A stretch of DNA of 64,000 bases from an uncultured Desulfosarcina sp. (GCA_963674945.2 CAXXWQ010000003.1:2556931-2620930), one strand, 5' to 3'; counted from the first letter of the stretch, positions 45,498 through 63,862 are shown. Notes: generated by a model from the sequence alone, not told the origin. Made by a program: numbers and translations.

Positions 45498-45522
45498 AGA
45501 TGTGAAACAAAGGTGGTTGCCT

Positions 45523-46671: not shown

Positions 46672-46741
46672 ATGTCCGGAACTAACGCTCAGGTCATCGT
46701 ACTCATGAATACCGATGCCGGGCTTTTGTCGAAGGAGATAA

Positions 46742-47500: not shown

Positions 47501-49912
47501 ATGTCAAAGACAGCGATGTTTCAAGAAAAACAGCGCTCTGGACGAGTAAACCGGTTGAAACGTGAGTGGCACGAAACTCCTCCAAGGCTGTCCATGGAAT
47601 GGCTACGATTCATGAAGGACACTTACAGGGAGAATGCAACAGAACCGCCCACCATGGTCCGTGCCAGATTGCTGGAAAATGTCCTCGCCAATTTGACCAT
47701 ATTCATCGACGCTAATCCGATCGTGGGTTCTACCGTGGAGCACCGGAGGGGTGCCATTCCCCACCCGGAATGGTCCTGCGGATGGTCAAAGGAAAATACC
47801 CACAGCCATACTCACATTGATGAACTGTTCATAGCGGATGAAGACCTGCCGCTTTTGGAAGAGGCCGTGGCGTTCTGGAGGGGAAGGTGCACGGAGGACA
47901 AGACAAACGCACTATTTGAACAGATGCATCCCGATGCCCCGAGCTGTGCACAGCTCGGCCAATGCGGCGTGCTGCTCCTTGTGACGACTCCCATAATTCA
48001 AACGGTGGTGAACTGGAAAAAAGTACTGACTTTAGGCTTAACCGGCATTATCCGAGAGGCGGAAGACAATCTACGGCTCTTGCCGGTTGGGGATAGTGTA
48101 TCCCGAAACAAGCGAAATTTTTTGCGAGCCGCCATTATAACGCTTAGGGCAACTATTGCTTTTGCTCACCGATATTCCGGACTGGCCAGTGATCTCGCGG
48201 CAAAGGAAATGAATTCTCAACGAAAAACAGAACTGGAGAAAATTGCCGATACTTGCCGGTGGGTGCCGGAGAATCCACCCAGAACATTTTATGAAGCAAT
48301 CCAATCGTGGTGGTTTGTATTTGTTGTTAACTGGATGGAGTCAGACACCGGTACCGGTATGGGAAGAATTACCGATGATTTCTATCCTTTTTATGCGGAA
48401 GACAAGAAAAAGGGAAGAATTACACAGGAGCAGGCGATTGAGCTTCTTCAGTTGCTTTTCCTAAAGGTTTCGGAATGTGGGAAAGCAATATTTACGGGTC
48501 AGTGATCTTTGGTGTATGGATGGCAGAATTTAGGTGCCCAAATAGGCATTGGAGGGGTAGATGCAAGAGGAGATGACGCTACCAACGAGTTGGATTTTCT
48601 AGTGCTGGAAGCGCAGCGGCGTGCTCAGTTACCGGAGATTACGTTGGGACTGCTGTACCACGATAAGATGGATGAAGAATTTCTGACGGATTGCGTTGAC
48701 CTTATTCGAACGGGTATCGGTCAACCGGCTTTTTACAATAACGATGTTTTCGTTCAGCGCGCTCTGTTCGACTATCCGGGAATATCCTTGGAACAGGCCC
48801 GATACGTCACTCCCATAGGATGTCTTCAGCAGGGCTTGTGCGGTCCGATGTTTTACGCAGGTCTCGGATTCATGAACTCTGCCAAAATGCTGGAACTGGC
48901 CCTGAACAATGGTAAGGATCCCCTTAAAGGGATTCAACTTGGCCCGCTCACAGGAGATGCCAGGACATTCAAGTCCTATCAAGAGCTTCATGACGCCGTC
49001 AGACGGCAGTTCAAATTCTTCGTTCCGCTTTGGCTGGAACGGATGCGCATCCATTTTGATAATCTTTCCGAGATTACACCGATGGTCTTTCAGTCGGCAT
49101 TGGTGGATGGTTGTCTGGAGAATGGGAAAGATATCTTTAGCGGAGGCGCAAGGTACAATCAGTCCGGCGGAGACTTTGTGGCAACCGTGGACCTTGCCAA
49201 TTCGCTGGCGGCTATAAAGAAACTTGTCTTTGATGACAAGCGGATAACCATGGCAGCGCTTATCGACGCATTGCAGGCAAATTTTGAGGGAGAAGAAGGT
49301 GCGAAGATTCAGCGAATGTGTCTCAATTCTCCGAAGTATGGCAACGAAGATCCATACGCGGGCGATATCGTTAAAGAGTGGTACGAGATATTGTACCAGG
49401 AACACCGGAAAGCAAGCAGGCCTTATCCCACGGAAAATTCTGCAATCGTACCGCAAGCATACTCGAACGCAATGCATTTCGGGATGGGCCTCCATATGGG
49501 GGCACTGCCCAATGGCAGAAAAGCAAGGGTGGCTTTGACCGATGCCAGTGTATCGGCCATGCCGGGTACAGATACCGAAGGCCCGACTGCCCTTATGAAT
49601 TCCGCTGCTTCGGCAATTGACTGTGTCAAGTATGGGTCGAATCACCTGAATATGAAATTTCATCCTGCCATGCTCAAGAGGCCGGAGGGAGCCCTAAAAC
49701 TACTTGCACTCATCAAGACCTATATGGACCGAGGCGGTCATCATGTGCAGTTCAATTGCGTCAGCGCGGAGACACTACTGGATGCCCAGGCCCACCCGGA
49801 AGAACATAAGAACCTGGTAGTACGGGTTGCTGGTTTCAGTGCCTATTTTATCCATCTGCCCACAGGGGTCCAGGACGAGATCATAAAAAGGACAGAGCTG
49901 GGCTTCGATTAA
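47501..49912 (+). pseudogene. Glycyl radical enzyme interrupted by a single in-frame TGA (48503-48505)
   Basis: ORFs 47501..48505 and 48509..49912 share a frame; PPRTFYEAIQ, IGGVD..G.DATN, GCLQ, PNGRKA, HVQFN, RVAGFSAYF; 803 codons if read through. Confidence 0.88.
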
Positions 49913-50032: not shown

Positions 50033-51130
50033 CTATCCTGCGGTTTGTTTCGTGCAACATACACCCGAGCCATTCAGGCCCGCTTCCAGACAGCTGCCGT
50101 CGGAAAGACATCCGGATTTTCCCAAATCGCCTCGTTTCCACCGTTGAATCAGATTGGGTTCTCGAATAAATGGTCGGCATAAGGAAATGTAATCCGCCAC
50201 ATGCTCACTGAGCAGCTTGTTCGCAACCGTATATGATCGAATGCCTCCCACGAGGATGATGGGAATATTCAACGCCGCCTTGAAGGATTTTGCCTCGTTT
50301 TGAAAGTACGCCTCATCTTTTATTGACACGATTCCGGTTCTTGAAGATTTCAAGTGTCCCGATGCACGGGTCCCCCCACTGACTTCGATTGCGTCCAGCC
50401 CCAATTTTTCAAGCCGTTTTCCTGCATCCACGGAATCGGCAAGAGAGAGTCCCCCCTCAAAAAAGTCCTGTGAGTTGATTTTGACCAGCAGCGGATAATC
50501 ATCTCCCACCGTCTTTCGGATTCGGTAAAGGATCTCACAAAGGATTCGGCACCGGTTCTCGATGACACCCCCGTATTCGTCTTCACGACGGTTAAAACCC
50601 GGTGACAGAAACTGGTTCAACAAATACCCATGGGCGATATGGAGTTGGATACCGTCGAAACCGGCGGTCTTGGCCCGATGCGCCGCTTGAACGAAGGCGT
50701 CTACCACCTCTTCGATCTCTTTGGATGACAATTTCCGGGCAGGGTGGGAAACGAACCCTTCTCCGGTCGACGGTCCGACCGGAGTTTCGCAGATGAGTTT
50801 TGGATCGGCATACATACCGGCATGGGCCAGCTGGACGATGACCTTTCCACCGCAATCGTGGATTGCCGTAGTCAGCCGTTCAAGTCCGGCGATCTGTTCG
50901 TCACAATATATTCCCAGCTGGCGCGGACCGGCCTGCCCCCTTTTTTCCACATAGGCATGACCGGTGATGATCAGTCCCACGCCGCCTTCGGCAAGTTCTG
51001 TCAATCTCTCCGTCAGCTGTGGGGTGCAGGCACCATCCTCCCGGGCCAATCCCATCCATGTGGCCGATCGGATAAAGCGGTTTTTCAGTGCCATTTGGTT
51101 GAGATGGGTGGTTTCAAAGAGTTCGGGCAT
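50033..51130 (-). CDS. NADH:flavin oxidoreductase (Old Yellow Enzyme family)
   Basis: LKNRFIRSATW, GGVGLIITG, QLAHAG, AGFDGIQLHIAHGYLLNQFLSP, RPFIREP. Confidence 0.92.
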   Translation of the reverse strand: MPELFETTHLNQMALKNRFIRSATWMGLAREDGACTPQLTERLTELAEGGVGLIITGHAYVEKRGQAGPRQLGIYCDEQIAGLERLTTAIHDCGGKVIVQLAHAGMYADPKLICETPVGPSTGEGFVSHPARKLSSKEIEEVVDAFVQAAHRAKTAGFDGIQLHIAHGYLLNQFLSPGFNRREDEYGGVIENRCRILCEILYRIRKTVGDDYPLLVKINSQDFFEGGLSLADSVDAGKRLEKLGLDAIEVSGGTRASGHLKSSRTGIVSIKDEAYFQNEAKSFKAALNIPIILVGGIRSYTVANKLLSEHVADYISLCRPFIREPNLIQRWKRGDLGKSGCLSDGSCLEAGLNGSGVCCTKQTAG

Positions 51131-51372
51131 TTTTTTCTCCACTGGATATTGATCCGATCGCTTCTTGGCGATCAACCCTCAAAAAACCAAGGGGCGATCG
51201 CAAATATAGGTTGTCCTATAGCGGCATTATCGGAGCAATTATACAATCCTGACGTGCTTTTTAAGGCGATGACCATGGCAGCGACGATTCCATGCTTTGC
51301 CATGGGCAAAATAATTGAAGAATGAGTTTCTTTCACAATATTGTTTGGCCATCTTTGGCCTGGAAACGTTTT

Positions 51373-52533
51373 TTAGGGATAACTCTTTCTAATGGACTGC
51401 AAAAGTTCCGCCTCGCTCAATCCGTATCCGAGCAAAACCAGAGGAGTCTGCCCGCTTTCCGGATCCCGGGTAAAGTTGGGATGGGCCATGATTTGTCGGG
51501 TCCGATATATCATCTCGTCGGCGTTCATCTTGCCGGGAAGCGTCGATGCCTTCACGTTTTTCCGGTCGGTGTAGTAAAAGTAAATCAACGAATCGAAAAT
51601 TCGGCATAGCCGAAACGAATCCTTGAATTCCTCCCGGGTCTCGCTGGGAAAACCATAGATCACATGGGTTTCCAAGAAGGTGTCCGGGGATGCCTCCTTG
51701 ATGGATCTCACCATCTCGATGATGCGTGAAATTTCATAGTGTCGGTTCATCAGTCCCAGGACACGTTTTGCGGTCGACTGCACGGGGATATTCATGAAAT
51801 CGATCTGTCGAAAGACCCTCTCATCGATCTTCGGGAACAATTCACAAAATCCCCGTGGCTCCAGATAGTTGATGTTGAGCCGAATGTCATCGTGGGAAAG
51901 GGTGTTGAGCAGTTGGGCCAGATCGGTTTCCAGGTCCTTGCCGTAGCTGGCGCAATCATCGGCCAGAAGCATGAACCGCCGGTATCCTTGTTCCCGCGCC
52001 GCCTCCACCTCGCCGACGATCTGTGCGATGGGTTTGCTGGTCACCATGCCCTTGGCTTTTTTGATCCCGCAATAACTGCAGTTGTTGACACAACCCTGAC
52101 AGAGTTGAATGTAAAAGGAATCGACGAATCCGTATTGGGGGTCGATGAACCGCTGATCGAGTATACTGCCCGACACCTGATCGATGGGTACGGAAGCATT
52201 GAATATCTCGTTGAAACGGCCGAGCTCCTTGGGACCGATCAACACCACTTGAGAAAAATTGAATCGATCAGGACTGATCTTGGGGAGACATCCGCAGATG
52301 ATAATCCGTTTGTCCGACCCATAATTTTGCATGTGAGAATCGATCACCGACATGGAAATATCTTCCCGTTCCTGATCGAATCCACATGTGCTGATCACGA
52401 TGGCCTCGGCCCGGGCGGGATGATCCACCAAAGCGTGTCCGTTCTGTGCGAAAAAGTTTCGGATCTGTGTGCTCAAATAGCCGTTATTGTCGCACAGCTT
52501 GAATGTGGTGGTGAAGAATATGGGCTCTTTCAT
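51373..52533 (-). CDS. MiaB/RimO-like radical SAM protein lacking a TRAM domain
   Basis: N-terminal UPF0004-type cysteines (LCDNN, ISTCGF, CGCLP), GCVNNCSYC, IPVQS...VL..MNR.Y, GFPSET.EEF. Confidence 0.8.
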   Translation of the reverse strand: MKEPIFFTTTFKLCDNNGYLSTQIRNFFAQNGHALVDHPARAEAIVISTCGFDQEREDISMSVIDSHMQNYGSDKRIIICGCLPKISPDRFNFSQVVLIGPKELGRFNEIFNASVPIDQVSGSILDQRFIDPQYGFVDSFYIQLCQGCVNNCSYCGIKKAKGMVTSKPIAQIVGEVEAAREQGYRRFMLLADDCASYGKDLETDLAQLLNTLSHDDIRLNINYLEPRGFCELFPKIDERVFRQIDFMNIPVQSTAKRVLGLMNRHYEISRIIEMVRSIKEASPDTFLETHVIYGFPSETREEFKDSFRLCRIFDSLIYFYYTDRKNVKASTLPGKMNADEMIYRTRQIMAHPNFTRDPESGQTPLVLLGYGLSEAELLQSIRKSYP

Positions 52534-53116
52534 TTCCCTTGATACGATCGAATTCTTCCGGCGTGTTGACGTTGAGCAAGGCTCTTTTCCAGTCCCACCG
52601 ATGTTCTTCCATATCGATATAGTTTACACGGACATCGGGATAAAAGTCATATATGCGATATTCGCCTCGATCGAGCATTCGTTGCATGGCAGTCAGACAG
52701 TTTTTGTTGTAACAGGCAAATAGCGGTTCCAAACCATTGGCAGTTTGTGGAACGACGATATCGAATCCCCGGCTGACGGAAATCATGTACCGCACGAGAT
52801 CTTCGTCGGGAAAAGGGATGTCGCAGGAGGATACGAAAATCATTTCATTCCTGGCCATCAGCAGTCCCGTATAGACCCCGCCCAACGCACTGCCGGGGTG
52901 CCGGTCCGGATAACTGGGGACATCGGGTCGTTCCAGATCCGGCCGATCTCCTGCGATGATCACCCGGGCGAACAGACGGCGCATGATGCCCAGCAGATTG
53001 TCGAAGAAGGTAACGCCGCCGATCTTCAGGCCGGCCTTGTCCCTTCCCATGCGACGGCTCTTTCCACCGGCCAGGATGACGCCGGTGATGTGCTCCATTT
53101 TATGCGCACTGTCCAT
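52484..53116 (-). CDS. mobA: Molybdenum cofactor guanylyltransferase
   Basis: ILAGGKSRRMGRDKA, CDIPF, EPLFACY, NVNTPEE. Confidence 0.93.
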   Translation of the reverse strand: MDSAHKMEHITGVILAGGKSRRMGRDKAGLKIGGVTFFDNLLGIMRRLFARVIIAGDRPDLERPDVPSYPDRHPGSALGGVYTGLLMARNEMIFVSSCDIPFPDEDLVRYMISVSRGFDIVVPQTANGLEPLFACYNKNCLTAMQRMLDRGEYRIYDFYPDVRVNYIDMEEHRWDWKRALLNVNTPEEFDRIKGNERAHILHHHIQAVRQ

Positions 53117-53139
53117 TAAGATGGTTTTCCTTTTTTTCC

Positions 53140-54162
53140 CTATCCGCCAATCATGTGCATCCGGCCCAGCCCGCCGCAAACGCGAGAATCCGTCAACAGG
53201 TGCTGAGACGGTTTGTTTTTCACTGATTTGACAAAAATCGCGGCCAACTCGTGGTCCATGGCCCCGCTTCGCAAAGGTCCCTTGATATCCTCCTGGATGT
53301 TGTTGAGCAGACAGGAGCGCAGCTGACCGTCAGCTGTCAAGCGGAGCCGGTTGCAGCTTTCACAAAAGTGGTTGGTCATGCTGCTGATAAAACCGATCTC
53401 CCCCGGAGCCCCTTGGAAACGAAAGCGCAATGCCGGTCCGTCGTTTTTTCCTTTTTCCACCGGAACCAATTTTCCGAATCGTTCAAGCCGCTGTTTGATC
53501 TGCGATGCAGGGACGGTTCTGTTTTGCGCTGTCCCGTTTTCGACGCCGATGGGCATATATTCGATAAACCGGATGTGTAACGGCCTGGTCGTGGAGATCA
53601 TGGCCATGTCAACCACCTCATCGTCATTGACACCGTTGATGACGACCATATTGATTTTAATGGGAGAAAAGTTCATTTCCGCGGCCATATCGATGGCCTC
53701 CCATACCTCATCGAACCGGTCGGCGCCGGTGATGTTCCGGAAGCGATCCCGCTGCACGGTATCCATGCTGATGTTCAAGCGCCGGATCCCGCCGTCATGA
53801 ATCCGCTGCAGATTTTCTTTCAATCCGGCACCGTTGGTCGTCAGGGAAATATCATCCAGCCCCGGGATGCTCGCCAATCTGGGGATGAAATCCACCAGTC
53901 CATTGCGGACCAGGGGTTCACCGCCGGTAAGGCGGACTTTTCCGATCCCCAGACCCACGGCAATCCGAATCAACCGGTATATCTCTTCATAGGAAAGGAT
54001 GTCGATATGGCGCATGGTGGTGAAACGGCCCGGCGGTCTGCAGTAGAAGCAATTAAAATTGCAACGATCCGTTACGGACACACGAAGATAAGAGATGGTC
54101 CGTCCGAATTGATCGACCAGCGTGGGCCGAGCTCCTTCGTTTTTATTGATGCAACGCAGCAT
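53140..54162 (-). CDS. moaA: GTP 3',8-cyclase
   Basis: YLRVSVTDRCNFNCFYC, RLTGGEPL, FCESCNRLRLTADG.LRSCL, C-terminal MHMIGG. Confidence 0.96.
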   Translation of the reverse strand: MLRCINKNEGARPTLVDQFGRTISYLRVSVTDRCNFNCFYCRPPGRFTTMRHIDILSYEEIYRLIRIAVGLGIGKVRLTGGEPLVRNGLVDFIPRLASIPGLDDISLTTNGAGLKENLQRIHDGGIRRLNISMDTVQRDRFRNITGADRFDEVWEAIDMAAEMNFSPIKINMVVINGVNDDEVVDMAMISTTRPLHIRFIEYMPIGVENGTAQNRTVPASQIKQRLERFGKLVPVEKGKNDGPALRFRFQGAPGEIGFISSMTNHFCESCNRLRLTADGQLRSCLLNNIQEDIKGPLRSGAMDHELAAIFVKSVKNKPSQHLLTDSRVCGGLGRMHMIGG

Positions 54163-54175
54163 TTGGTATTCCTTT

Positions 54176-55207
54176 CTACACCGATTTACCGAAGGCGCAA
54201 TCGGGAAACCGACAGCGCTTGCACTGCAGGCAATAACCGCCGTGCCCCAATCGGGCGATGTCCCTGCGAGTGATCCGCTCGCCGGCCAAGATGCGGGGGT
54301 AGATCAGATCCAGCACCGTAGCCTTGGCGTACATGCCGCAGGCCGGTATTCCCAGAAACGGAACCCCCTCCAATACGCCGGTCATGAACATGGCGCCGGG
54401 CAATACGGCCGAACCATAAAGAATATCCTTTCCCCCGGCCTGCTCGATGGCCGGACGGGTTACATCGTCCGCATCCACGGACATGCCGCCTGTGGTGAAA
54501 AGGATGTCGACGCCACGATTCACCAGTTCCAGGGCTTCTTTGGCAATCCGATCCTTATCGTCAGGCAAAAAGACGACATCCAGGATTCTCCCACCAAATG
54601 CTTCCACCTTCTTTCGAATAATGGGTTCGAACCGATCCTTGATACGTCCTTCATAGACCTCGGTACCGACGATCAAAGCGCCCACATTGACCGATTTGAT
54701 GGGAAGGACCTTTAACACGCCGTCGCTTTCACCGCACACCTCTACGGCCCGTTTCACGCGGTCTTTGGCGATGAGCAGGGGAATGGAACGAGTCGCTCCG
54801 ATCTTTTGGCCCTTTCGTACATAGGAGTTGGTGTGGCGGGTGGCACACATTACATCACCGATCTCGTTGAACCGGGTGAGAGCGTCCACATCCACTTTGA
54901 ACAATCCGTCATATTGTGCTTTGAGTGTAATCTTTCCCTCCCTGGGCGGATTATCCCATCCCACCCCATCTCCGCAAAGGGCCGTTGCAATGGCTTCGGC
55001 GGCATCGTCCTCATGCATTTCATAGGCTTCGGGACGCAATACATAGAGATGGTTTTTCCCCAGACGGCGAAGATGTTCCACTTCTTCGGGTTGAAGGATA
55101 TGTCCCCGATGAAAGGCGGCGCCTTTGAATTCCCCGGGTCTGATTTCCGTAATGTCGTGTGCGAGGGGAAGCCCTATCGCCTTGTCCACAGCAATAATTT
55201 CGATCAT
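54176..55207 (-). CDS. Molybdopterin-binding (MoeA-like) protein
   Basis: LAHDITEI.PG.FKG, MHEDDAA, GTEVYEGRIKD.F, TGGMSVD.DD.T, VLPGAMF, GGYCLQC..C.FPDC.FGK. Confidence 0.88.
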   Translation of the reverse strand: MIEIIAVDKAIGLPLAHDITEIRPGEFKGAAFHRGHILQPEEVEHLRRLGKNHLYVLRPEAYEMHEDDAAEAIATALCGDGVGWDNPPREGKITLKAQYDGLFKVDVDALTRFNEIGDVMCATRHTNSYVRKGQKIGATRSIPLLIAKDRVKRAVEVCGESDGVLKVLPIKSVNVGALIVGTEVYEGRIKDRFEPIIRKKVEAFGGRILDVVFLPDDKDRIAKEALELVNRGVDILFTTGGMSVDADDVTRPAIEQAGGKDILYGSAVLPGAMFMTGVLEGVPFLGIPACGMYAKATVLDLIYPRILAGERITRRDIARLGHGGYCLQCKRCRFPDCAFGKSV

Positions 55208-55267
55208 GACAGCGTCTCCTTAGCTAAATGATGATCCAATTCGGATGAATCCGGTGATGAATTGTCT

Positions 55268-55972
55268 TCAAACCGGGTGCTTTTCACCTGGTAACAATCC
55301 GAACGATACAGCACTACTGTAATTTTTTTTTTCGGCGTAAGGCCAAAAATAAGTTCCACCTGCCTCACGGGTCGTCGATGCCTCCGATACCCAAGGTTTA
55401 GCGTAGCCTTTGCCGGCACAGTGCCGACAAAGAACGGCATTGCCGTATGAAACCTCTCGATGATCCCGGATCACCTGACCGCATTGCTCACATGTGGCAT
55501 AATGGCTCGCCTTTCCGGGCATTTCCCATTCGGGGATGGTGATGCGCACCCGCTGCACGTCAAAAAGGACGTCGTCGGGCATCCGGGTATAGCCGGCAAG
55601 CTGCTGTTTTCTGCGGTTGGTTTCTTCCGGGGCGTAATTGGCCGCTTCGTCACGGGATTTTTCCGTGGAAACGATCCGATAGGCCACCTGGGTTGAAAGG
55701 TTCCAGAATGTGGCAGCGTTAATCCCGAAATCCTTGAATTTCATCGTCCGTTTTCCCAACCGGCAGCCCGTGACGCTCTGGATGGCATCCGTGGCGCAGC
55801 GGTCTATCTCGACGAAGACCATGATCTTCTTTCGCCATTTCTCGGATCGCGGATTCTCGATCCCGATCAACCGGCACCCCAGCATGGCCATTCGGACACC
55901 GATCACCTGTCCGGCACACAAGTGTCCATGTTCGGCTACGGATGCTTCCAGCAACGCTTCGAATGTTCTCAT
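55268..55972 (-). CDS. FmdE family protein with C-terminal C4 zinc finger
   Basis: HGHLCAGQVIGVRM, EIDRCATDAI, GCRLGKRT, CEQCG...LCRHC. Confidence 0.88.
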   Translation of the reverse strand: MRTFEALLEASVAEHGHLCAGQVIGVRMAMLGCRLIGIENPRSEKWRKKIMVFVEIDRCATDAIQSVTGCRLGKRTMKFKDFGINAATFWNLSTQVAYRIVSTEKSRDEAANYAPEETNRRKQQLAGYTRMPDDVLFDVQRVRITIPEWEMPGKASHYATCEQCGQVIRDHREVSYGNAVLCRHCAGKGYAKPWVSEASTTREAGGTYFWPYAEKKNYSSAVSFGLLPGEKHPV

Positions 55973-56361
55973 TTCTCTTCTCCTCGCACAGGCATATAGT
56001 CCGATATCTTACCGAAAATTTCATTAAAGGTTTTGTCCACCTTCTCCGAGATGCCTTCCTGTTGGTTCTCGAAGAGTTCGATCAGGGCTTTTGCCGATTC
56101 GGTGATTCGCGCGGTAGCGCCCTCTTTGCCTCCCCTTCTGGTTTCCACCAGCGTTTCTCCCACAGCCTTTTCCATGTCGCGAATGGCACCGCGAACCCTG
56201 CGATAGGAGATCCGTGTCTCCTGGGCTGCCTTGAGGATGGATCCATGGCGATCGATGGCCCGAAGAACGGCAAGACGACCTTCTCCGATAAACGGTTTCT
56301 CATCCAGTTCCAGCCATACCTTTGATCTGACGGTCAGTTTTTTCCTGTTCAGTTTCAACAT
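55969..56361 (-). CDS. ModE-family winged-helix regulator (N-terminal domain only)
   Basis: SKVWLE, GEGR..VL.AI...GSI..AA....ISYRR, RGG..G.....T. Confidence 0.88.
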   Translation of the reverse strand: MLKLNRKKLTVRSKVWLELDEKPFIGEGRLAVLRAIDRHGSILKAAQETRISYRRVRGAIRDMEKAVGETLVETRRGGKEGATARITESAKALIELFENQQEGISEKVDKTFNEIFGKISDYMPVRGEEK

Positions 56362-56390
56362 CGCTCGCCCTTTTTCGAGTACGAGAGTTT

Positions 56391-56618
56391 GATGAATTCG
56401 TAAAAAGCTTTTCCTTGCCAAATACGGCCAAACATTCGCATGAAAGAAACTCGCTATGATTTCCTTCGCAGATAGACGGAAACGAGGGAATTAAAATCGA
56501 TTTTAATCCTTACGGCGAACATTTATATTCAATCCCGAGGAATGAGGCGTACATAAAGTACGCCGCAGTAACGAGGGACGAAGCGTAACGCCGATATCGG
56601 GCTTTTTACGAAGCCGTC
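56391..56618. repeat. MITE-like composite element related to 904-1167
   Basis: GATGAATTCGTAAAAAGC...GCTTTTTACGAAGCCGTC ends (15/18); shares CGCATGAAAGAAACTCG..GATAGACGGAAA and ACGAGGGACGAAGCGTAACG modules. Confidence 0.8.
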
Positions 56619-56624
56619 GACTTC

Positions 56625-57605
56625 TCATATCATCGGTGGTAGATATATCTTCGCCCTTGCATCGGGAATTGCCTTTTTCCCAAGATAATCCAGCCCTTCC
56701 ATCACAGTCTCCAGCTTGGAAAAGGGAATTCCCATGAACATGATCTCCTCGCCGATATCGGAAATCGCACGGCAGCCGTAACATCCCAACGAGGTGTTCA
56801 TTTCCCCCGTAGTATAGGGAAAAAGGGTACTCTCCACACACTGGGCATTGTAAGAACTCATCTGGAAACTCATTCGTTTTCCCGTATAGTACGTGGAGGA
56901 CATGCACAGCCACATCATGGTTTCCGGCGGCGCCATGACCACCACCACATCGGGCCTCATCACCGGACGATCCAACGGCACGATCAATGTGGCCCGCATG
57001 GAGTTTTCCGGTAGCATGGGACGTTCCGAGACCATCTGGGCGGCCGCCGCCTTGTCCGCCAGTTTGCCCAACTGAACGTAGATTTCGCCGGAGGCCAGCT
57101 TGGGGGGTACCCTGGAAAGCCCCAGGATGGATGTCCCATCCGGACAGGCGTGGGACCATCGGGGCATGAGCATGCTGTGGCCCCGACGGGCCATGATCAG
57201 TGCCTGGCAATAGCGCAGCCGTTTTCGCGGCACCTTGACGTGGGGCACCGGATCGTTCTTGGCGATCAGGTTGACGGCCACCGGTTTACTCCTAAGCCCG
57301 AGTACCTCTTTCATCTTGCGGGCAAAAGCTTTGCAGGTGTCCGCATCATCTTCACCGATGGGGACGAAGGGCCGGGTGTTGGCATCGTCGATATACGGTT
57401 TCTCGGGATCCTGCTGGCTGATGGTGATGGCGCGTGACGGACACTTTCCCGCGCAGGTCATGCAGGCCCAGCAATCCTGGGGACGGGCCGGACTCGGGTG
57501 AGACTTGCCATTGGATTGAACAAGATCAAAAACCGACATGGGGCACAGCTCGGCACATTGCCCGCATTGGATACATTTTTCACTCTCTATCTCTATCTTA
57601 ACCAT
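56625..57605 (-). CDS. 2x[4Fe-4S] ferredoxin fused to DUF169
   Basis: CIQCGQCAELCP, CWACMTCAGKCP; L...PVAV, RYCQA, ACPDG...LGL, PDVVV, N.SLGCYGCR. Confidence 0.85.
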   Translation of the reverse strand: MVKIEIESEKCIQCGQCAELCPMSVFDLVQSNGKSHPSPARPQDCWACMTCAGKCPSRAITISQQDPEKPYIDDANTRPFVPIGEDDADTCKAFARKMKEVLGLRSKPVAVNLIAKNDPVPHVKVPRKRLRYCQALIMARRGHSMLMPRWSHACPDGTSILGLSRVPPKLASGEIYVQLGKLADKAAAAQMVSERPMLPENSMRATLIVPLDRPVMRPDVVVVMAPPETMMWLCMSSTYYTGKRMSFQMSSYNAQCVESTLFPYTTGEMNTSLGCYGCRAISDIGEEIMFMGIPFSKLETVMEGLDYLGKKAIPDARAKIYLPPMI

Positions 57606-58431
57606 CGATCTTGGTCCTTGGGTCAAAGGAAGTGTTGGGTGGCGTGCTGGTGTAAAGCCCCACTTTTTCGATGAAATCCACTGTCCGCTGCGGTACTACC
57701 ACGTCTGGCTGAAACCGCGCCGTGTAGGCCATGGCATTGACCACGGTGATCATGTGGGCCAGGTCTTCCATTAAATCCACATCCGAAAGCGCCTCGAAAA
57801 GGGCGGTAGGCAGTTCTTTTCCCCGGGCGATGGCGATGAGGGCGTCCAGTGCGGAAACCCCTTCCGGATTATAAAAAACACCGGAAAAATCCATGTTGGC
57901 GGTCCGGGTAACGCCTACCAGGGATACACCGCCTGCCTGGCAGGGGGCCAGCACCATGGCACCCCTGTCCGACTCTTTTTCAAGGGTCTCCAGCCAGTCA
58001 AAGGCCCGAACAAGAAGATCGGGGGTGATCGCCGGCATGTCGCCACCGATACAAACCACGCTGTCGTAGTCCTTTTCGAAAAGCTGCCGGTAGCAGTCGT
58101 TGAAATGCTCATCGAAGTTGGCACCGCGGTCGATCACGTATTGAAACGTCTGTTCGGGGACCTCTTCATCGAACATGGCCCTGACCTGATTCATAATACT
58201 TTCCGGCGACGAGGAGATGAAAAAGTCAAAAGCTGCATCCGATCCGTTATTCCGGCACGTTTCAAGAGCATGGCACCCCACCGTGGCAGTATCGAGCACC
58301 ATTGCCTTATAGAGTTCTGCCGCCTCCTCGGGAGTTAAGGTTCCACCGTTTTCTTCCATCAACCGGGTTTTGGTGACGCCTGGCTGCGGATACTTCGTGA
58401 AAAGGGTCAAAGCGTGCTTTCTTGTTTTCAT
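57598..58431 (-). CDS. DUF2064 / TIGR04282-like CofC-type nucleotidyl- or glycosyltransferase
   Basis: LFTKYPQPGVTKTRL, A.ELY.AMVLDT, IGGDMP, VLAPCQAGG, LSDVD..EDL. Confidence 0.82.
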   Translation of the reverse strand: MKTRKHALTLFTKYPQPGVTKTRLMEENGGTLTPEEAAELYKAMVLDTATVGCHALETCRNNGSDAAFDFFISSSPESIMNQVRAMFDEEVPEQTFQYVIDRGANFDEHFNDCYRQLFEKDYDSVVCIGGDMPAITPDLLVRAFDWLETLEKESDRGAMVLAPCQAGGVSLVGVTRTANMDFSGVFYNPEGVSALDALIAIARGKELPTALFEALSDVDLMEDLAHMITVVNAMAYTARFQPDVVVPQRTVDFIEKVGLYTSTPPNTSFDPRTKIDG

Positions 58432-61046
58432 TTCGTGCCTTCCTTACGCATTATCGTGTTCTTACTATTGCGCATCATGGGTTGCGGCTTACAGGCGGAT
58501 CGATCCGGGCATCGACAACATTCTTCCTGTTGGTTTTCCGGCAGTACAATCCACTTCGTTTCGATAAATCCCAAGGTCCGGTAAAAGGAAACAGCTTCTC
58601 CGCGGGCAGCAACGGCGATGGGTTTCGTCCCCGATGAAATACTTTCAATCAGGCGTCGGCCGACGCCTTTTTGCCTGTGTTGTTGGGCGACCACCACAGG
58701 CCGAATCATCTGCAAATTCTCATGATCTTCCAGCCGCAAGCAGCCAAGAAGATCACTCCCATCCAGGGCCAGTCGATAGTCGCTTATAGGTTCGGCATGC
58801 TCCATTTCGCTCTCCCACAACAGACGGATCAGGGCATCACGGTCCCTTTCCACGGCGTACCGGATGGAAATGGGATTCTCTTTTGCTTTTACCTTGTAAA
58901 CCTTGCAGCACAGGTCTCGTGTCCCCCATTGACCGAGAATTGGATCGCACCGGTCCGTATGGGCCGAGGTCAAGACATTTGCATTGGATTCCCATACGCC
59001 TCCGAGTTCAGGCGCTGCCGATGATCGTTCCGGAAACCACCACCCGTATTCGATGCTTACGGTGTCCGGTCGCATGTCGGCAATTTTGAGTCTTTGCCGG
59101 ATACGCCCCTTATGGGTCTCGATCCACACCCAATCCCCCTGGGCCAGACCCAGTGCACTCGCCGTTGATGCCGACATCTCTGCAACGGGTTCGAGGCGCC
59201 TGCGCCGGAGAGAGGCTACCTGCCGGTGCTGGGAAGAGTAGTACGGCTGCCGTCTGACACCGCTCATCAGGGTCAAGGGGTATGTGTCATCGTCTCTCTC
59301 CACTGCGGTGTATGCCGGCAAAGGGTCGTGTCCCAGGTCTTTCAGGATCCTTGAAGAAAGTTCGATCTTACCGCTGGGCGTCGCGAATCCCTGCGCAATG
59401 TACTTGTGGTACACAGGCTCCGGGGCGTACAGACCTGTTTTGCAGAACTGGTCCCAAGTGAGCCCGCAGGGAGAAAAGATAGTGTCCAGAGCCTCCTCCA
59501 GGCTCTTCCAGGGCCAATGTTCGGTTTGGCCGCATCGCCGGCCCAAGTCGCACCAGAAATCAAAACCCGTCCGCCGTTCATGGCGGGGAGAGATGGCCGC
59601 CGGTCCGCCATAGGCGATGTTGGCTGTGCCTCCGTTGGTCTGAACCATGGACTGCTCCAGACTGCCGGCCATGGGCAGCACGTAGTCGGCCAGCATTGCC
59701 GTTGGTGTCAGAAAGTGCTCCAGGCAGACCAACAGATCCAAATTGCACAATGCCCCGTATATCCTGCGGGTGTCGGACTGACACAAAAGCGGGTTGCTGG
59801 CAAAGGTGATGAGCCCGCGGATCGGGTACGGTTGGCCGGTAATCATGGCCTGCCACGCCAGATGGGGATGCGCAGCGGTCAGGTATCGCGTTGGCAGAAC
59901 CTTGCCATGCCGCCGGGTATATTCATCGAGTCTTTCCAGACCTTCGTATCGCTGGAGGCCGAATAATCCCCTACCCAGCTTTTTCTTCCGTTGTTCGGGC
60001 GATAGCAGGTGCCCCAATTCCATGGCCACTTCCGGCATGAAATCCGGGTAATCATGAAGACAATTGGCACCCGGCGTGTCAAAATTTCCCGTAACGGCGC
60101 GAAGAATGGAAATGGCTCGAAGCGTTTGGGTGCAGTTTGCCCCACCCATGTCGATGCCCAGCCCCGTCAGTATGGATGCGGGTGGAGAGGTGGCGTAGAC
60201 GCGGGCTGCTTCGGTGATGGATGAAGGTGCAAGACCTGTTATGGCAGCTACCGTTTCCAACGGATAATCGTCGATGCGACGCGTCAAATCGTCGAAACCG
60301 GAACACCAGGTATGGACGAATCGTTCGTCAACCAACTTCTCTTTGACGATGACATGGAGCATGCCCAGGGCCAGGGCGCCGTCTGTTCCCGGTCGGATGG
60401 AGAGCCATTGTCCGGCCATGCGGGATGTACTGGTTTGCCGTGGATCCACGGTGATGAGGGTGCCACCGGAATCGATATAATCTCGCACCGTTTTCCAAAA
60501 CAGTGAGTTGTCCGATTCGGCAGGATTGACACCCCAAAGGATGGCACATCGCGTCTTGTTGGGGAGTATCTCATCTTCGATGGGCCATCCGAAGGTCAGA
60601 CTGTTCACCCATATCCTCGGATTCCAGCAGGATATTCCGATGCCGATATTGTTGGGGCTTCCCCAGACGTTCATGAACCGGTGAAGGGGCCAATAAATTG
60701 CGTGCGGTGCGCTGATGCTGGTGGCCAGAGATTCGGGACCGTATTGATCTCTCATGTTCTTCACGCCATCGGCAATACTTTCCATGGCCTCATCCCAACA
60801 GATGCGCTGCCACTTTCCCTCTCCCCTCTTCCCGATCCGTTTCAAGGGGTGGTTGATGCGATCCGGATGGTCGAGATACTCTCCAAGCGCCGAAAAACGC
60901 CGGCATCGGTTCACGATTTTCTTGTCATAGGGGTAGCGGGTCGGGTCGGGCGTGATGTTGTGAATCCTCTCCCTTTCATCGACATGCACTTCGACACCGC
61001 ACAGATAGCCGCAGTGATGGCAGTTGGATTTTTTCACCTCAACCAT
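58428..61046 (-). CDS. Mo/W-bisPGD oxidoreductase with C-terminal GNAT domain
   Basis: CHHCGYLC, HPDRI.HPLKR.G.RGEGKW, RPGTDGALALG, TPTAMLADYVLP, TPSGKIE, YGWWFPE; then VVVAQQHRQKGVGRRL..FYRTLGF. Confidence 0.9.
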   Translation of the reverse strand: MVEVKKSNCHHCGYLCGVEVHVDERERIHNITPDPTRYPYDKKIVNRCRRFSALGEYLDHPDRINHPLKRIGKRGEGKWQRICWDEAMESIADGVKNMRDQYGPESLATSISAPHAIYWPLHRFMNVWGSPNNIGIGISCWNPRIWVNSLTFGWPIEDEILPNKTRCAILWGVNPAESDNSLFWKTVRDYIDSGGTLITVDPRQTSTSRMAGQWLSIRPGTDGALALGMLHVIVKEKLVDERFVHTWCSGFDDLTRRIDDYPLETVAAITGLAPSSITEAARVYATSPPASILTGLGIDMGGANCTQTLRAISILRAVTGNFDTPGANCLHDYPDFMPEVAMELGHLLSPEQRKKKLGRGLFGLQRYEGLERLDEYTRRHGKVLPTRYLTAAHPHLAWQAMITGQPYPIRGLITFASNPLLCQSDTRRIYGALCNLDLLVCLEHFLTPTAMLADYVLPMAGSLEQSMVQTNGGTANIAYGGPAAISPRHERRTGFDFWCDLGRRCGQTEHWPWKSLEEALDTIFSPCGLTWDQFCKTGLYAPEPVYHKYIAQGFATPSGKIELSSRILKDLGHDPLPAYTAVERDDDTYPLTLMSGVRRQPYYSSQHRQVASLRRRRLEPVAEMSASTASALGLAQGDWVWIETHKGRIRQRLKIADMRPDTVSIEYGWWFPERSSAAPELGGVWESNANVLTSAHTDRCDPILGQWGTRDLCCKVYKVKAKENPISIRYAVERDRDALIRLLWESEMEHAEPISDYRLALDGSDLLGCLRLEDHENLQMIRPVVVAQQHRQKGVGRRLIESISSGTKPIAVAARGEAVSFYRTLGFIETKWIVLPENQQEECCRCPDRSACKPQPMMRNSKNTIMRKEGTK

Positions 61047-62347
61047 CCGTCCTCCTGCCTCCGTGAGGATAAAGTCTCCGGCCGTCGGTATCCGTCAGAT
61101 GGTAGGTACAAAATGGAATGGAATTTCCATCGGCCGTGGTCACCGCAAGGTTGCACCCCCGGGCCCTTTCCAGGTCCAGGGTCCAGGCATCCATGTACTC
61201 CATGATGAGGATGGGAAGCCCCGTGGGCAATTCTTCCGATGGGAAGGACTTGGCAACGATATCCGCAAACACCGCGCCCTGGGGACTGTCCTTTTCAAGC
61301 ATCTCCCGATAGGTCTTTTCATCCAGATACCTTGTAAACGGCTCGTAGTCATCTTTTTCTCCAATCAAATAGGTTGAGCCGTAACAAAGAGGGTGGCTGC
61401 TACCCACGGGCCAGAAATCACGCGCATGGATTCTCCCGTCCGACTGTTCGGAAATCAGTCGCGCCACATCTCCTATGGAAAGATGTTTCTGTTTTTCTAC
61501 TTCGAACCTTCCGGAGACAAACGCCGGTTGCAGCGCCAGGCCGTAAATAACGTCCATATTGTGCATGGCATAACGCAGAATGTTGCCCTGTTCATGGTCG
61601 TTGACGCCTTTTACGATCGTAACCGAAAGGATTACCGGTATCTGTTCCTGCCGGCAATTTTGAATCGCCATTTGTTTGTCTGCCAGCACATGTCTTCCCC
61701 GCAGTGTTTTGGTCGTTTCCGGATCCATTCCGTCAAATTGAAGATAAATATTGGTGAGACCGGCTTTTTTGAGGGACCTCACATATTCAATGTCCCTTCC
61801 GATCATAAGACCGTTGGTATTGAGTTTCCACGGCCGTGAAGCCAAGTTCTCTAGCGGCTGCGATAATCCTGGGCAAATCATGCCTGACCGTTGGCTCGCC
61901 CCCTGTGATCTGTATGGGAAGTCCGGGGCCATCAAAGTCCCGAATCGACTCCAACATGTGGATGATCTCTTCGAATGAGGGATCGGGCGGGACCCCGCCA
62001 TCGGACATGAAACAAACCGGACAGGACAAATTACACCGCCAGGTGACTTCGATCTCGGGGAGTGTAATCCGTCGTTGATGCATTGCACACAAGCCGCAGT
62101 CATGGGGGCATCCCTTTTGCCCTTTTCTTTGGGGGGTACGGGAGGAACGGGGAAACGCAAATGCCGCATGCCACTTGTAATGATCCGCATCCGGCCAGAG
62201 GTAGACGTCAAAGGCGCCGTGGTCCGGGCAGGTTTTCTGCATGTAGACTTGGCCATCTTTATCGTACACCCGCGCAGGCAACGTTTTCAGGCAATGGGGG
62301 CAGACGCTTTTCGTGGTTCGTATCGTATTCACTGGTGGATGATTCAC
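61039..62347 (-). pseudogene. MJ0619/Tes/TrsS-like multi-cluster radical SAM, split by a +1 frameshift near 61826
   Basis: SVCPHC, KTCPDHG, GCPHDCGLC..H, CNLSCPVC, GGEPT in one frame; LNTNG, YLQFDG, HPLC, GC......IPFC in another; removing one base from GAAA restores AVELNTNG. Confidence 0.85.
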
Positions 62348-62457
62348 TCTTTTTTAAGACGCAAATTCCCATGCATAAAAAGAAAGCGGCAGATTCTGCC
62401 ATTCTCAAATAAAAAATAACAAACGATTAATTTTATTTGCCGTAATTCCGGATTCGA

Positions 62458-63608
62458 TTAATTGGAAAAGGCCTTTAATTCGGAAGTTTGCAGCCTGAAA
62501 AAATTCTCATCGCCATTTTCTTCTTCCCACATGAGGGCTGACTTTTCGTCATATTCCTCATGGTCTACCGGGCATTCAAACAGCAACTCCAGGATGTGTC
62601 GAATTTCTTGACCCTGCCGGCCGGTCAACCGATGTGCGCAGGACATACAGTAGGTCACACAAAGGTTGGCGCCGGTCTCCGCCATCTCTTCCAGTCGTTT
62701 TTCCGCACGTCGCTCACATACTGTTGGATCGATGATGGAGACGATCCCACCGGATCCACAACAGATCGTCTCGGCCCCGTGGTGGGTCATCTCCCTGATC
62801 TTGCAGTTACCCAAGAGTTTACGATATGCTGTCCGATCTCACCGGAACGATCGGTACAGGAATCATGAACCGTCACCGTTTTGTCTTCTATTGCCGGTGC
62901 GCTGAATCCGGATTCCGCCATGATTTGAAACAGGGAGACGACCTCGATGTCGCCGTCGGGATCCAAGGCGGCCAACTGCGCCTGACAGGTGGGGCAGGCG
63001 GTGATGATTCGTCTCGCCCCGGTCGTCGCAAGGCTGTGCCACAATTCTTTTCCATAGGCGTCTTCTCTTTCGACCATGCCGATTTGGCCCAACGGTGCGC
63101 CGCAACACTCCACCGAAACGCCAATGGTTTTTCCACGGCGCCCGAGCCAATCCAACACCGATGTAACAAGAGAAGGCCCTTCGTTGGCCAGCATGCATCC
63201 GGGGAAAAAGAGGTCTTCGCAGTTCTTTTTGGCCAACGTCTGGTAAAATTCTTCAAGCCCATGATTGTGCCGAAAAAGACGAAACGCATTCCAATCGTGG
63301 TCGACCCATAACGGCCGATATGCATCAGCATCTATGGCAACGGTGTTGATCAAAGACCGACGGGCCTCACGGATCATCCGGGGAAAATCCAGTTTCTCGG
63401 GACAAATTTCACGACACAATCCACATAGGGAGCATTTGATAACAAAGGACACAACCGAATCGTCGACGCGGTTCTCCAAAAATGCCCTCGCGACCTCTTC
63501 TGGAATCATTTCATGAGACTGCAGATACTCGCATGCTTCGACGCAAAGTTTACATTGGCTGCATTTTCCTGCAATTGTTTGAAATACATTCCCGGACGTT
63601 GATTTCAT
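62458..63608 (-). pseudogene. HdrD/GlpC-like Fe-S protein with CCG domains, split by a -1 frameshift near 62823
   Basis: CSQCKLCVEAC, CSLCGLCREICP, FFPGC, ECCGAP, TACPTC, VHDSC then ICCGSGG, TYCMSC in another frame; adding one C gives HIRKLLGNC. Confidence 0.85.
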
Positions 63609-63616
63609 CTTCCGAC

Positions 63617-63862
63617 TCACATCTTTTGGTTTGTTCGTGTGTTTTGATATACCGTTGGTTTGAAAGCCGTGAGATTTTCCTTCTCGTACCTCACCAGAAT
63701 GTAGTAACCGATGATGGCGGCAGAGGCGATCGCGGTCAAAACCACCAGTGAAAAAGAGAGTGATCCGACTTCGAGGTAAAGCGTGGAGGCGTATGCCAAA
63801 TATAACTGGAACCCGCACGACAGTGCCAAATAAACGTATTTGATGACTTTATTGGTGTTCAT
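63617..63862 (-). CDS. Small two-TM membrane protein, unknown function
   Basis: GAGGAGG RBS before ATG, two hydrophobic segments, ends 8 bp before the next gene. Confidence 0.65.
   Translation of the reverse strand: MNTNKVIKYVYLALSCGFQLYLAYASTLYLEVGSLSFSLVVLTAIASAAIIGYYILVRYEKENLTAFKPTVYQNTRTNQKM

Follow-up and report, generated by a model that had tools for sequence, protein, structure and literature searches.

A conserved gene system with two molybdenum enzymes was found, whose downstream half lies in the window, that is, the whole 64,000-nucleotide stretch analysed from an uncultured Desulfosarcina sp., and whose upstream half lies on contig C4. The reading favoured here, held tentatively at a probability of about 0.45, is that the system builds and uses a small, nucleotide-activated cofactor or redox carrier tailored by radical SAM (rSAM) enzymes, with a predicted role in converting aromatic (catechol-type) compounds under anaerobic conditions. 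Its newness rests on gene composition. The sequence-only reading had expected the genes to co-occur in other genomes, had known no characterised pathway of this composition and had taken the set for a route to a small cofactor or metabolite; the core was found to recur across five phyla, no characterised pathway was found that matched the composition or covered the whole cluster, and the third proposal was supported. A search of the open literature, with Haft & Tolstoy 2025 (TrsS) outside its coverage, found no description of the system, and one supplementary file of PMC12771579 gave no match.

Twelve genes lie on the minus strand between 51373 and 63862 (Table 1). All twelve co-oriented genes previously proposed are real and belong to the families then named, the FmdE-family gene (55268-55972) having been left out of the earlier title, and the four overlapping stop/start pairs (61039/61046, 58428/58431, 57598/57605 and 55969/55972) proved exact: 8 nt for rSAM/MO2, 4 nt for MO2/DUF2064, 8 nt for DUF2064/DUF169 and 4 nt for ModE/FmdE. 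The CCG gene and the rSAM gene each appeared in two frames; short-read contigs from runs X1 and X2, both of one sample that may be the source of the window itself, lacked a base at 61825 and had an extra one after 62822, so these frameshifts are assembly errors and pseudogenes were ruled out. The difference at 61825 was also present in run X3, from another sample. Moreover, a 263-bp gap with a genome-wide repeat splits the run, and therefore no claim of a single operon is made. Promoter and terminator scans gave counts at chance level only, and Rfam gave no match.

Table 1. Features located in the window (positions counted from its first nucleotide).
Feature	Position	Strand	Evidence or remarks
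TRAM-less MiaB-like rSAM, lineage-specific	51373..52533	-	UPF0004 + CxxxCxxC; 9/78 loci
MobA-like guanylyltransferase	52484..53116	-	PF12804; MobA models below cut-off; 9/78 loci
MoaA	53140..54162	-	TIGR02666 356 bits, above cut-off 284; 12/78 loci
MoCF_biosynth-domain protein (MoeA-like)	54176..55207	-	8/78 loci; three genome paralogues, 42-60%
FmdE-family protein, C4 zinc finger	55268..55972	-	15/78 loci; paralogue at C3:162363
ModE-type HTH regulator	55969..56361	-	TIGR00637 77.8 bits, below cut-off 98.5; 6/78 loci
Dispersed repeat, intergenic, outside the system	56421..56623	.	158 blastn matches in genome; very high contig depth
2x[4Fe-4S] ferredoxin fused to DUF169, core	56625..57605	-	four conserved Cys and a His
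DUF2064-subfamily protein, CofC/FbiD nucleotidyltransferase fold, core	57598..58431	-	predicted model, homologues
MO2-GNAT, core	58428..61046	-	closest solved structure 2e7z, E 8e-121
Tes/TrsS-like rSAM, ~435 aa, core	61039..62347	-	frame break at 61825 due to assembly
2x[4Fe-4S] + two-CCG-domain protein, ~383 aa, core	62458..63608	-	Pfam Fer4_17/CCG; frame break at 62822 due to assembly
81-aa membrane protein	63617..63862	-	no Pfam/NCBIfam match; homologues at same position in 12 other loci

The window ends with the end of contig C3, and the conserved cluster continues upstream with five genes at C4:411-5113. This half comprises a Zn-ribbon protein, a PhnP-like hydrolase and a second Mo enzyme (MO1) with Fe-S and membrane subunits. 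The PhnP-like gene scored 104 bits with TIGR03307, below the cut-off of 272, and its solved relatives were 6b9v, PhnP (3g1p) and PqqB (4z7r). In Desulfobacterota, MO1 is swapped for an unrelated PsrA-like enzyme while the rest of the cluster is retained. In clusters of this type the 81-aa protein is conserved, with the NarI-like anchor on one side and the CCG gene on the other, and it is likely to serve the MO1 membrane complex as a small subunit. MO1b and MO2 group in one clade with acetylene hydratase and the catechol dehydroxylases.

The core, comprising MO2, DUF2064, ferredoxin-DUF169, the Tes/TrsS-like rSAM, the CCG protein and GNAT, was recognized in a total of 78 genome loci, where MO2 appeared in 64, ferredoxin-DUF169 in 62, the rSAM in 53, GNAT in 48 and the CCG protein in 46. 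Among the 45 loci of at least 15 kb, the counts were 41 for MO2, 40 for DUF169, 36 for CCG, 33 for GNAT, 31 each for the rSAM and MO1, and 23 for PhnP. A reverse search from MO2 found at least one partner in 74 of 76 MO2 loci, and among 201 Eggerthellaceae genomes MO2 occurred in 95, DUF2064 in 96 and both in 95, a co-occurrence that overstates independence because these genomes are related. The core genes co-occur far beyond chance. Members were named from Gordonibacter, Ellagibacter, Adlercreutzia, Raoultibacter, Paraeggerthella, Senegalimassilia and Denitrobacterium.

The Moco genes and the MiaB-like enzyme are lineage-specific extras; these and ModE, once counted as parts of the system, proved peripheral, each being carried by 6 to 12 of the 78 loci, and the FmdE-family gene is peripheral too. 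A single conserved unit of all twelve genes was rejected, the core plus MiaB-like enzyme being found in just 5 of 78 loci. ModE consists of the N-terminal HTH part alone, without the molybdate-binding domains. The MiaB-like protein has the three UPF0004 cysteines (C14, C50, C82) and the rSAM motif (C148/152/155); among 401 genomes of the window's phylum it occurred in the same two genomes as MO2, adjacent in both. Unlike the MiaB/RimO methylthiotransferases, which have a TRAM domain, it gave no TRAM match, and TIGR00089 reached 207 bits against a cut-off of 251. The rSAM partner varies, being MiaB-like here and BioB-like, B12-dependent or ArsS plus ArsM elsewhere.

MO2 of the window (aa 1-725) is a Mo/W-bisPGD enzyme of the acetylene-hydratase clade with Cys140 in a CWN motif, fused to an ArgA/ArsN2-like GNAT that is usually a separate gene elsewhere and had no solved relative at E 1e-4. 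Other fusions were MO2-DUF2064 (P0377) and CCG-MO2 (P0374). C9, C12, C16, C48 and C140 were invariant among 27 MO2 sequences. A Tat motif was absent from 55 MO2 sequences, and a simple motif scan found it in none of 83 MO2, MO1a and MO1b sequences.

For DUF2064, 126 homologues were found, the best 120 of which were all at least 46% identical. Its predicted model (pLDDT 91.9) matched CofC/FbiD proteins with Z scores of 20.9 (2i5e), 20.7 (7p97, rmsd 2.2, 190 aligned) and 19.2 (6bwg), and MobA with 11.8, so that the CofC/FbiD guanylyltransferases would be, judging from the model, its nearest characterised relatives. The ESM Atlas returned clusters for DUF169 and DUF2064 alone. A fold search with the full ferredoxin-DUF169 model matched solved folds by the ferredoxin part only, so it barely probed the DUF169 part. 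An intact rSAM orthologue (L029) scored 388 bits with TrsS (NF045646, cut-off 490) and 317 with Tes (NF045702, cut-off 450). Conserved in 49 rSAM sequences were C11, C14, C35 and H38; C75, C79 and C82; C100, C104 and C107; and C316, C393 and C408. The N-terminal CxxC..CxxH site, the auxiliary Cys sets and CxxxCxxC were all present in the alignment to 7tol. The best NCBIfam match of the CCG protein was NF045663, over its C-terminal part and below the cut-off.

The predicted aromatic role comes from the catechol dehydroxylases, whose clade was delimited here through gene order and the names of the sources rather than through sequences taken from the papers. Homologues of the Gordonibacter-type dehydroxylases occurred in 88 of the 201 Eggerthellaceae genomes, and 86 of these carry MO2; two genomes rich in Mo enzymes, G087 and G095, lack both. 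In unrelated lineages, the cluster has such dehydroxylase-type enzymes and aromatic-acid-type MFS carriers as direct neighbours. In the RNA-seq data of G. pamelaeae 3C (PMC7028382 Supp. 2d), a nine-gene block, C1877_13790 to 13750, was up with DOPAC, log2 values running from 4.6 down to 1.9 along it; the induction is modest (log2 1.2-1.3 in the second experiment), and about 100 genes rose with DOPAC, so it may be indirect. C1877_13770 (A0A369LRW2, P0308) is 45.8% identical to the window MO2. Outside Eggerthellaceae, the link is not obligatory: homologues of at least 45% identity occurred in 4 of 15 other cluster-bearing genomes, and the window's genome had no Gordonibacter-type dehydroxylase (best 33%). 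Of 401 genomes of its phylum, eight had homologues of 41-47%, one alone of these having MO2, and the DUF2064 subfamily was found in none of five checked among the eight. The Gordonibacter enzyme Cldh is reported active in E. lenta (PMC11887054); no Eggerthella-named member was among the best 120 matches of the homologue searches, most of which lacked an organism name.

In the proposed scheme, the CofC-fold DUF2064 protein may attach an NMP to a small acid that is phosphorylated, and the Tes-like rSAM would form a C-C or C-S bond. With the CCG protein and ferredoxin-DUF169 as its electron relay, MO2 could carry out a hydroxylation or dehydroxylation, GNAT would acylate an amine, and the PhnP-like enzyme might trim a nucleotide or cyclic phosphate, and exchangeable rSAM enzymes (MiaB-like here) would add lineage-specific decorations. 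The cytoplasm-facing MO1/Fe-S/membrane-anchor complex would either consume the product or draw on the quinone pool to reduce it again, its output possibly reaching soluble dehydroxylases without a membrane anchor. A narrower version is doubtful, namely that the cluster makes a nucleotide-tagged redox cofactor that is the missing electron carrier or prosthetic group of cytoplasmic catechol dehydroxylases, for gut polyphenols and sediment aromatics, with a methylthio or methylarsenic group perhaps added in some lineages.

A pathway that degrades or respires one organic substrate (phenolic or phosphoester/phosphonate), in which MO1 would be the terminal reductase, MO2 a dehydroxylase or hydratase and the remaining enzymes activating steps, would account for two Mo enzymes with electron-transfer partners, for the clade of MO2 and MO1b and for UbiD, amidohydrolase and aromatic-acid carriers close by. 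The C-P lyase pathway likewise includes PhnP and an acetyltransferase. This is nevertheless rather unlikely, as the lineages have no conserved substrate transporter or regulator in common and, in Desulfobacterota, the PsrA-like enzyme replaces MO1 while the other genes persist; three to four SAM-consuming enzymes would be costly for bulk flux, and several interchangeable rSAM enzymes would fit low-flux biosynthesis better. That the accessory genes instead tailor molybdopterin itself, through a different nucleotide, a modified pterin or an added ligand, to suit MO1, MO2 and their acetylene-hydratase-clade kin was judged unlikely. The Tes-like rSAM, CCG protein and nucleotidyltransferase do accompany two unrelated Mo families sharing the pyranopterin alone, a DUF2064 paralogue directly precedes moaA in L026 and L040, mobA lies between DUF2064 and the rSAM in L121, and the tungstate result in PMC7028382 is that DOPAC dehydroxylation in G. 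pamelaeae was not blocked. However, the DUF2064 model is much closer to CofC than to MobA, a MobA-like gene already stands beside DUF2064 in nine loci, and the activity of Cldh in E. lenta also argues against it.

An organoarsenical (arsenosugar-like nucleoside) as the compound made or transformed is quite improbable. It draws on the relation of DUF2064 to TIGR04282 (arsenosugar glycosyltransferase), on ArsS in the flanks of 8 and ArsM in those of 9 of 154 loci, in several lineages (with an above-cut-off ArsS near the cluster in G203), on two DUF3641 genes co-induced by DOPAC, and on a BioB-like plus ABC module adjoining arsC/acr3-like genes in the window's genome. Arsenic genes thus recur but are optional: ArsS and ArsM are missing from most loci and had no match in the window's genome at E 1e-15, TIGR04282 reached 92 bits against a cut-off of 134, and the recorded inducer is a catechol, so that the arsenic-containing product once proposed loses ground. 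The selenium-containing one fared no better, since no in-frame TGA aligned with Cys in any component (tblastn >80 bits, 78 genome loci) and no selenium link was thus seen; a selenoprotein reading was rejected on the same result, though the genome has two tRNA-Sec calls. Finally, it is highly improbable that the rSAM is a Tes-type lipid cross-linker with incidental neighbours: its best solved relative is the GDGT-macrocyclic archaeol synthase 7tol (E 4e-73), but it scores under the Tes cut-off, is about 70 aa shorter, has no lipid genes around it and stays with Mo enzymes across phyla.

If the cofactor reading is true, a new cofactor pathway would consist of six families without assigned function, which would be rare, giving first functions to DUF2064, DUF169 and a bacterial Tes-like rSAM clade. 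About half of the sampled Eggerthellaceae, bacteria that shape gut polyphenol metabolism, carry the system. Gordonibacter-type dehydroxylases are predicted cytoplasmic and without membrane anchor (PMC11887054). G. urolithinfaciens has an MO2 orthologue and is genetically tractable.

Compared with known systems, MO2 shares with acetylene hydratase (2e7z) the position of the Cys metal ligand and the four FS0 cysteines. In contrast, the Asp beside the second FS0 Cys of that enzyme, which we take to be its catalytic Asp13, is Gly in the window and Gly, Ser or Ala in orthologues, and MO2 has a conserved CWN motif and a large accessory cluster. The Gordonibacter-type dehydroxylases (Dodh, Cldh, Gp Hcdh, Eadh) belong to the same broad clade, are likewise cytoplasmic, and are co-distributed with the cluster, often adjacent and co-induced, whereas identity between MO2 and homologues of these enzymes is about 31-33% (the class expects about 40% or more) and MO2 lacks their WxxPGxH motif. 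The accessory genes DadhD-I, for Eggerthella-type enzymes, are of other families (PMC11887054). Exported CISM respiratory complexes bear a Tat signal on the catalytic subunit, unlike the MO1 and MO2 sequences scanned. With CofC/FbiD of the F420 pathway, DUF2064 shares the GT-A nucleotidyltransferase fold (Z 19-21 over 190-200 residues) and the FTKxP..TKTRL, GGDxP and DxD motifs, but identity is 16%, TIGR03552 reached 26 bits (cut-off 105), and no CofD, CofG or CofH was seen in the loci. The arsenosugar cluster (ArsM, ArsS, TIGR04282/TIGR04283) has the DUF2064 family in common, with ArsS/ArsM at times adjoining; here DUF2064 is a longer, distinct subfamily whose constant partners are Mo enzymes.

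The TrsS/DVU_1551-1559 aldehyde-oxidoreductase neighbourhood, whose models (NF045646, NF045663, NF045665-9) PMC13188914 credits to Haft & Tolstoy 2025, has a Tes-like rSAM and a CCG protein homologous to those of the window, and no functional characterisation of it was found in the literature searched. The same genome has a canonical copy (C3:229-242 kb, TrsS 667 bits), whose components parallel those of the cluster but surround a Mo enzyme unrelated to it; in both loci a Mo enzyme is accompanied by nucleotidyltransferase, phosphohydrolase, acyl-transfer and methyl-transfer functions. Its Mo enzyme is of the xanthine-oxidase family, while that of the window's system is of the DMSO-reductase family, and DVU_1551, DVU_1553 and DVU_1555 stand in place of DUF2064, DUF169, GNAT and PhnP. 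Furthermore, some TrsS members have selenocysteine, whereas none was found in the window's system, which stays below the TrsS-family cut-offs. The Hcg pathway of the FeGP cofactor combines radical SAM enzymes, GMP transfer and methyl and acyl transfer into a nucleotide-tagged cofactor. The cluster may follow a similar logic, a cofactor made for a co-encoded enzyme, although the client of Hcg is a hydrogenase.

The gene cluster is a real, widespread system. Its twelve minus-strand genes carry the families that the sequence-only reading had named, an FmdE gene being additional, and the four stop/start overlaps reported there were exact on recheck. The window's CofC-fold DUF2064 protein belongs to a tight subfamily with 126 matches. 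A pattern-based scan of one-per-species genomes with the DUF2064 alignment, by which many carriers were missed, yielded 78 loci in Desulfobacterota, Chloroflexota, Coriobacteriia, Clostridia and Acidobacteriota. In a strict tally of these loci, many of them short, the core partners were MO2, the acetylene-hydratase-clade Mo enzyme fused to GNAT in the window (64), ferredoxin-DUF169 (62), the Tes/TrsS-like radical SAM enzyme (rSAM, 53), GNAT (48) and the CCG protein (46); among the 45 loci of at least 15 kb, the respective counts were 41, 40, 31, 33 and 36. A second Mo enzyme (MO1) was found in 38 of the 78, PhnP-like proteins in 24, flavin-reductase-like proteins in 19 and FmdE in 15. The twelve-gene set had been expected to co-occur elsewhere, which held for the core and much less often for MoaA (12 of 78), MobA (9), the MiaB-like protein (9), the MoeA-like protein (8) and ModE (6). 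Moreover, a reverse scan by MO2 alignment confirmed 516 matches in metagenomes; the best 80 of these gave 76 loci (near-duplicates included), of which 74 had at least one cluster partner. MO2 was also tied by protein fusions to GNAT, DUF2064 and CCG, and in both of two genomes checked whose loci lacked MO2 the enzyme was encoded elsewhere. One Coriobacteriia-like locus (L070) comes from a Phocaeicola dorei record, probably through misbinning of its contig. Many Eggerthellaceae clusters (L181-L189) are accompanied by a flavin-reductase-like gene and by a candidate regulator of the PadR family whose N-terminus bears a His/Cys motif.

The conserved system is larger than the window, whose end is the end of contig C3. 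The usual gene order was PhnP, MO1, 4Fe-4S subunit, membrane anchor, CCG, rSAM, MO2, GNAT, DUF2064 and DUF169. In this genome, the upstream part (57-84% identical to orthologues) starts contig C4 and is read towards the contig interior; behind it come genes without relation to the system, an SDR gene among them, and an insertion element. The break in the cluster thus falls between the NarI-like gene and an 81-aa gene at the window end, which was kept at the junction position in 12 loci. MO1 is PsrA-like with a NarI-like anchor here, and an acetylene-hydratase-clade enzyme with NrfD in other lineages; a simple scan for the Tat motif was negative in all 83 MO1/MO2 sequences. The CCG and rSAM genes each appear as two reading frames in the window. 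Since single-base indels distinguish the window from contigs that were assembled separately from the short reads of X1 and X2 (two runs of one sample, possibly the window's own source), and the orthologues in other loci are intact, both breaks were read as assembly errors close to the contig end; run X3, from another sample, agrees on the break at 61825. The intergenic repeat listed below was very abundant also in other organisms' contigs from the same runs. A second OYE gene follows the MiaB-like gene, and OYE recurs in 7 of 154 loci.

Coordinates of features in the window, its genome and related loci
Location	Strand	Feature
Window 44123-47431 and 50033-51175	+ and -, respectively	Truncated OYE-type flavoenzyme, MoeA without C-terminal part, DUF1847 gene; second OYE after the MiaB-like gene
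Window 47501-49912	+	PFL2/dehydratase-type glycyl radical enzyme, split into two in-frame ORFs by one stop (48503-48505)
Window 56421-56623		Dispersed intergenic repeat, ~90-200 bp; 158 blastn matches in genome
Window 61825; 62822		Single-base indels (frame breaks)
C3:229500-242600 (L079)		Canonical TrsS / DVU_1551-1559 aldehyde-oxidoreductase locus
C3:572702; C3:722697		tRNA-Sec calls
C4:411-5113 (L083)		Upstream part of cluster
C4:1891021-1898550		BioB-like radical SAM and SsuA-type ABC importer, adjoining arsC-like, acr3-like and CCG genes
L132:533-3632		Adjoins selD-like, sulfurtransferase-like and cysteine-desulfurase-like genes (judged by sequence starts); only Se-related neighbourhood seen
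L172:9916-17291 (G203)		Dehydroxylase-like Mo enzyme, Fe-S partner, LuxR regulator and two MFS genes between cluster rSAM and DUF169

Among close kin of this genome the cluster was rare (2 of 61 relatives), and in a survey of 401 genomes of the phylum that scored just 2-4 candidates in each, MO2 was found in two genomes and the MiaB-like protein in those same two. Of 201 genomes of Eggerthellaceae (the family of G061), which are kin and not independent, 95 had MO2, 96 the DUF2064 subfamily and 95 both. A second, unlinked DUF2064 paralogue (34-39% identical) was present in most cluster-bearing Eggerthellaceae (L173-L179), often adjoining Usp and isochorismatase-family genes. Homologues of Gordonibacter-type catechol dehydroxylases occurred in 88 of the 201, 86 with MO2 and two without, while nine genomes had MO2 alone and 104 neither; both were absent from G087 and G095, which are rich in other Mo enzymes. 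Dehydroxylases of this kind were neighbours of the cluster in 8 or 9 of 154 loci, and MFS carriers of aromatic-acid type in 9 of 154, both from unrelated lineages. According to PMC7028382, DOPAC raised nine genes of G. pamelaeae 3C, C1877_13790 to 13750 (log2 4.6, 4.8, 4.5, 3.0, 2.9, 2.5, 1.9, 2.0 and 1.9), with dodh itself up 10.8. A repeat of the induction was weaker, with at least six of these genes raised by just 1.2-1.3; the authors remarked on the extra Mo enzymes, not studying them. The annotations follow the same sequence as the Eggerthellaceae cluster genes, and the fall of induction along the block would fit one transcript. C1877_13770 is UniProt A0A369LRW2 in a proteomics table (PMC11585353), equals protein P0308, and is 45.8% identical to the window MO2, the other eight genes being matched through annotation and order alone. 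A DUF1847 gene is also DOPAC-induced there, as is, among the most induced genes, a radical SAM and ABC block resembling the BioB-like module of C4 by gene type alone; that module also terminates the cluster in L005.

Nevertheless, the cluster stands alone, and the dehydroxylase clade as a whole does not strictly depend on it, given carriers without a dehydroxylase, dehydroxylase genomes without the cluster, and the reported activity of the Gordonibacter enzyme Cldh in E. lenta (PMC11887054). No Gordonibacter-type dehydroxylase was found in the window's genome (best match 33%), and outside Eggerthellaceae only 4 of 15 other carriers had one. Homologues of 41-47% identity, most with a different N-terminal motif, occurred in eight of the 401 phylum genomes, just one of them with MO2, and none of five checked had the DUF2064 subfamily. 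No Eggerthella-named protein appeared among the best 120 matches listed, most of which lack a species name.

A nucleotidyltransferase and an acyltransferase, together with a phosphodiesterase-like hydrolase, Fe-S redox proteins and a bond-forming radical SAM enzyme, make up the constant portion of the cluster; the tailoring enzymes are exchangeable. Cofactors are assembled by a comparable enzyme set in the Cof and Hcg pathways. From this resemblance, we tentatively propose, with a probability of about 45%, that the product may be a separate small cofactor or carrier, which the cluster enzymes would assemble through steps that are all inferred. A catabolic pathway is an unlikely reading. Slightly less probable is a tailoring of molybdopterin. 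The production or transformation of an organoarsenical is improbable. ArsM and radical SAM enzymes of ArsS, MiaB-like, BioB-like or B12-dependent type are optional neighbours. The suggested selenium link found no support, with no Cys/TGA pair in cluster components across the 78 genome loci. Finally, lipid cross-linking by the rSAM is very improbable; the Tes metal sites are present, and the protein scored below both the Tes and TrsS cut-offs.

The small cofactor or carrier would be the product of an apparently hitherto undescribed system. No description was found in the open literature searched; in passages of PMC13188914, PMC4001038, PMC5322559, PMC8762117, PMC10100899 and bioRxiv 2025.01.17.632430, the cluster families were named in passing or absent. 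None of the core proteins is named by an NCBIfam model with a score above cut-off. The DUF2064 model (pLDDT 91.9) aligned with an uncharacterised Desulfovibrio protein at Z 26.1, with CofC/FbiD guanylyltransferases at Z 19-21 and, far lower, with MobA at Z 11.8. GNAT is ArgA/ArsN2-like. Cys and His residues are conserved in DUF169; in a fold search with the ferredoxin-DUF169 model only the ferredoxin matched. The nearest solved structure to MO2 was acetylene hydratase, whose Cys ligand and FS0 cysteines are kept but whose Asp is missing, and the CWN motif was invariant among MO2 orthologues. Furthermore, the genome harbours a separate, complete canonical TrsS locus (L079), with all models above cut-off, which has a parallel parts list to the cluster, but around an aldehyde oxidoreductase.
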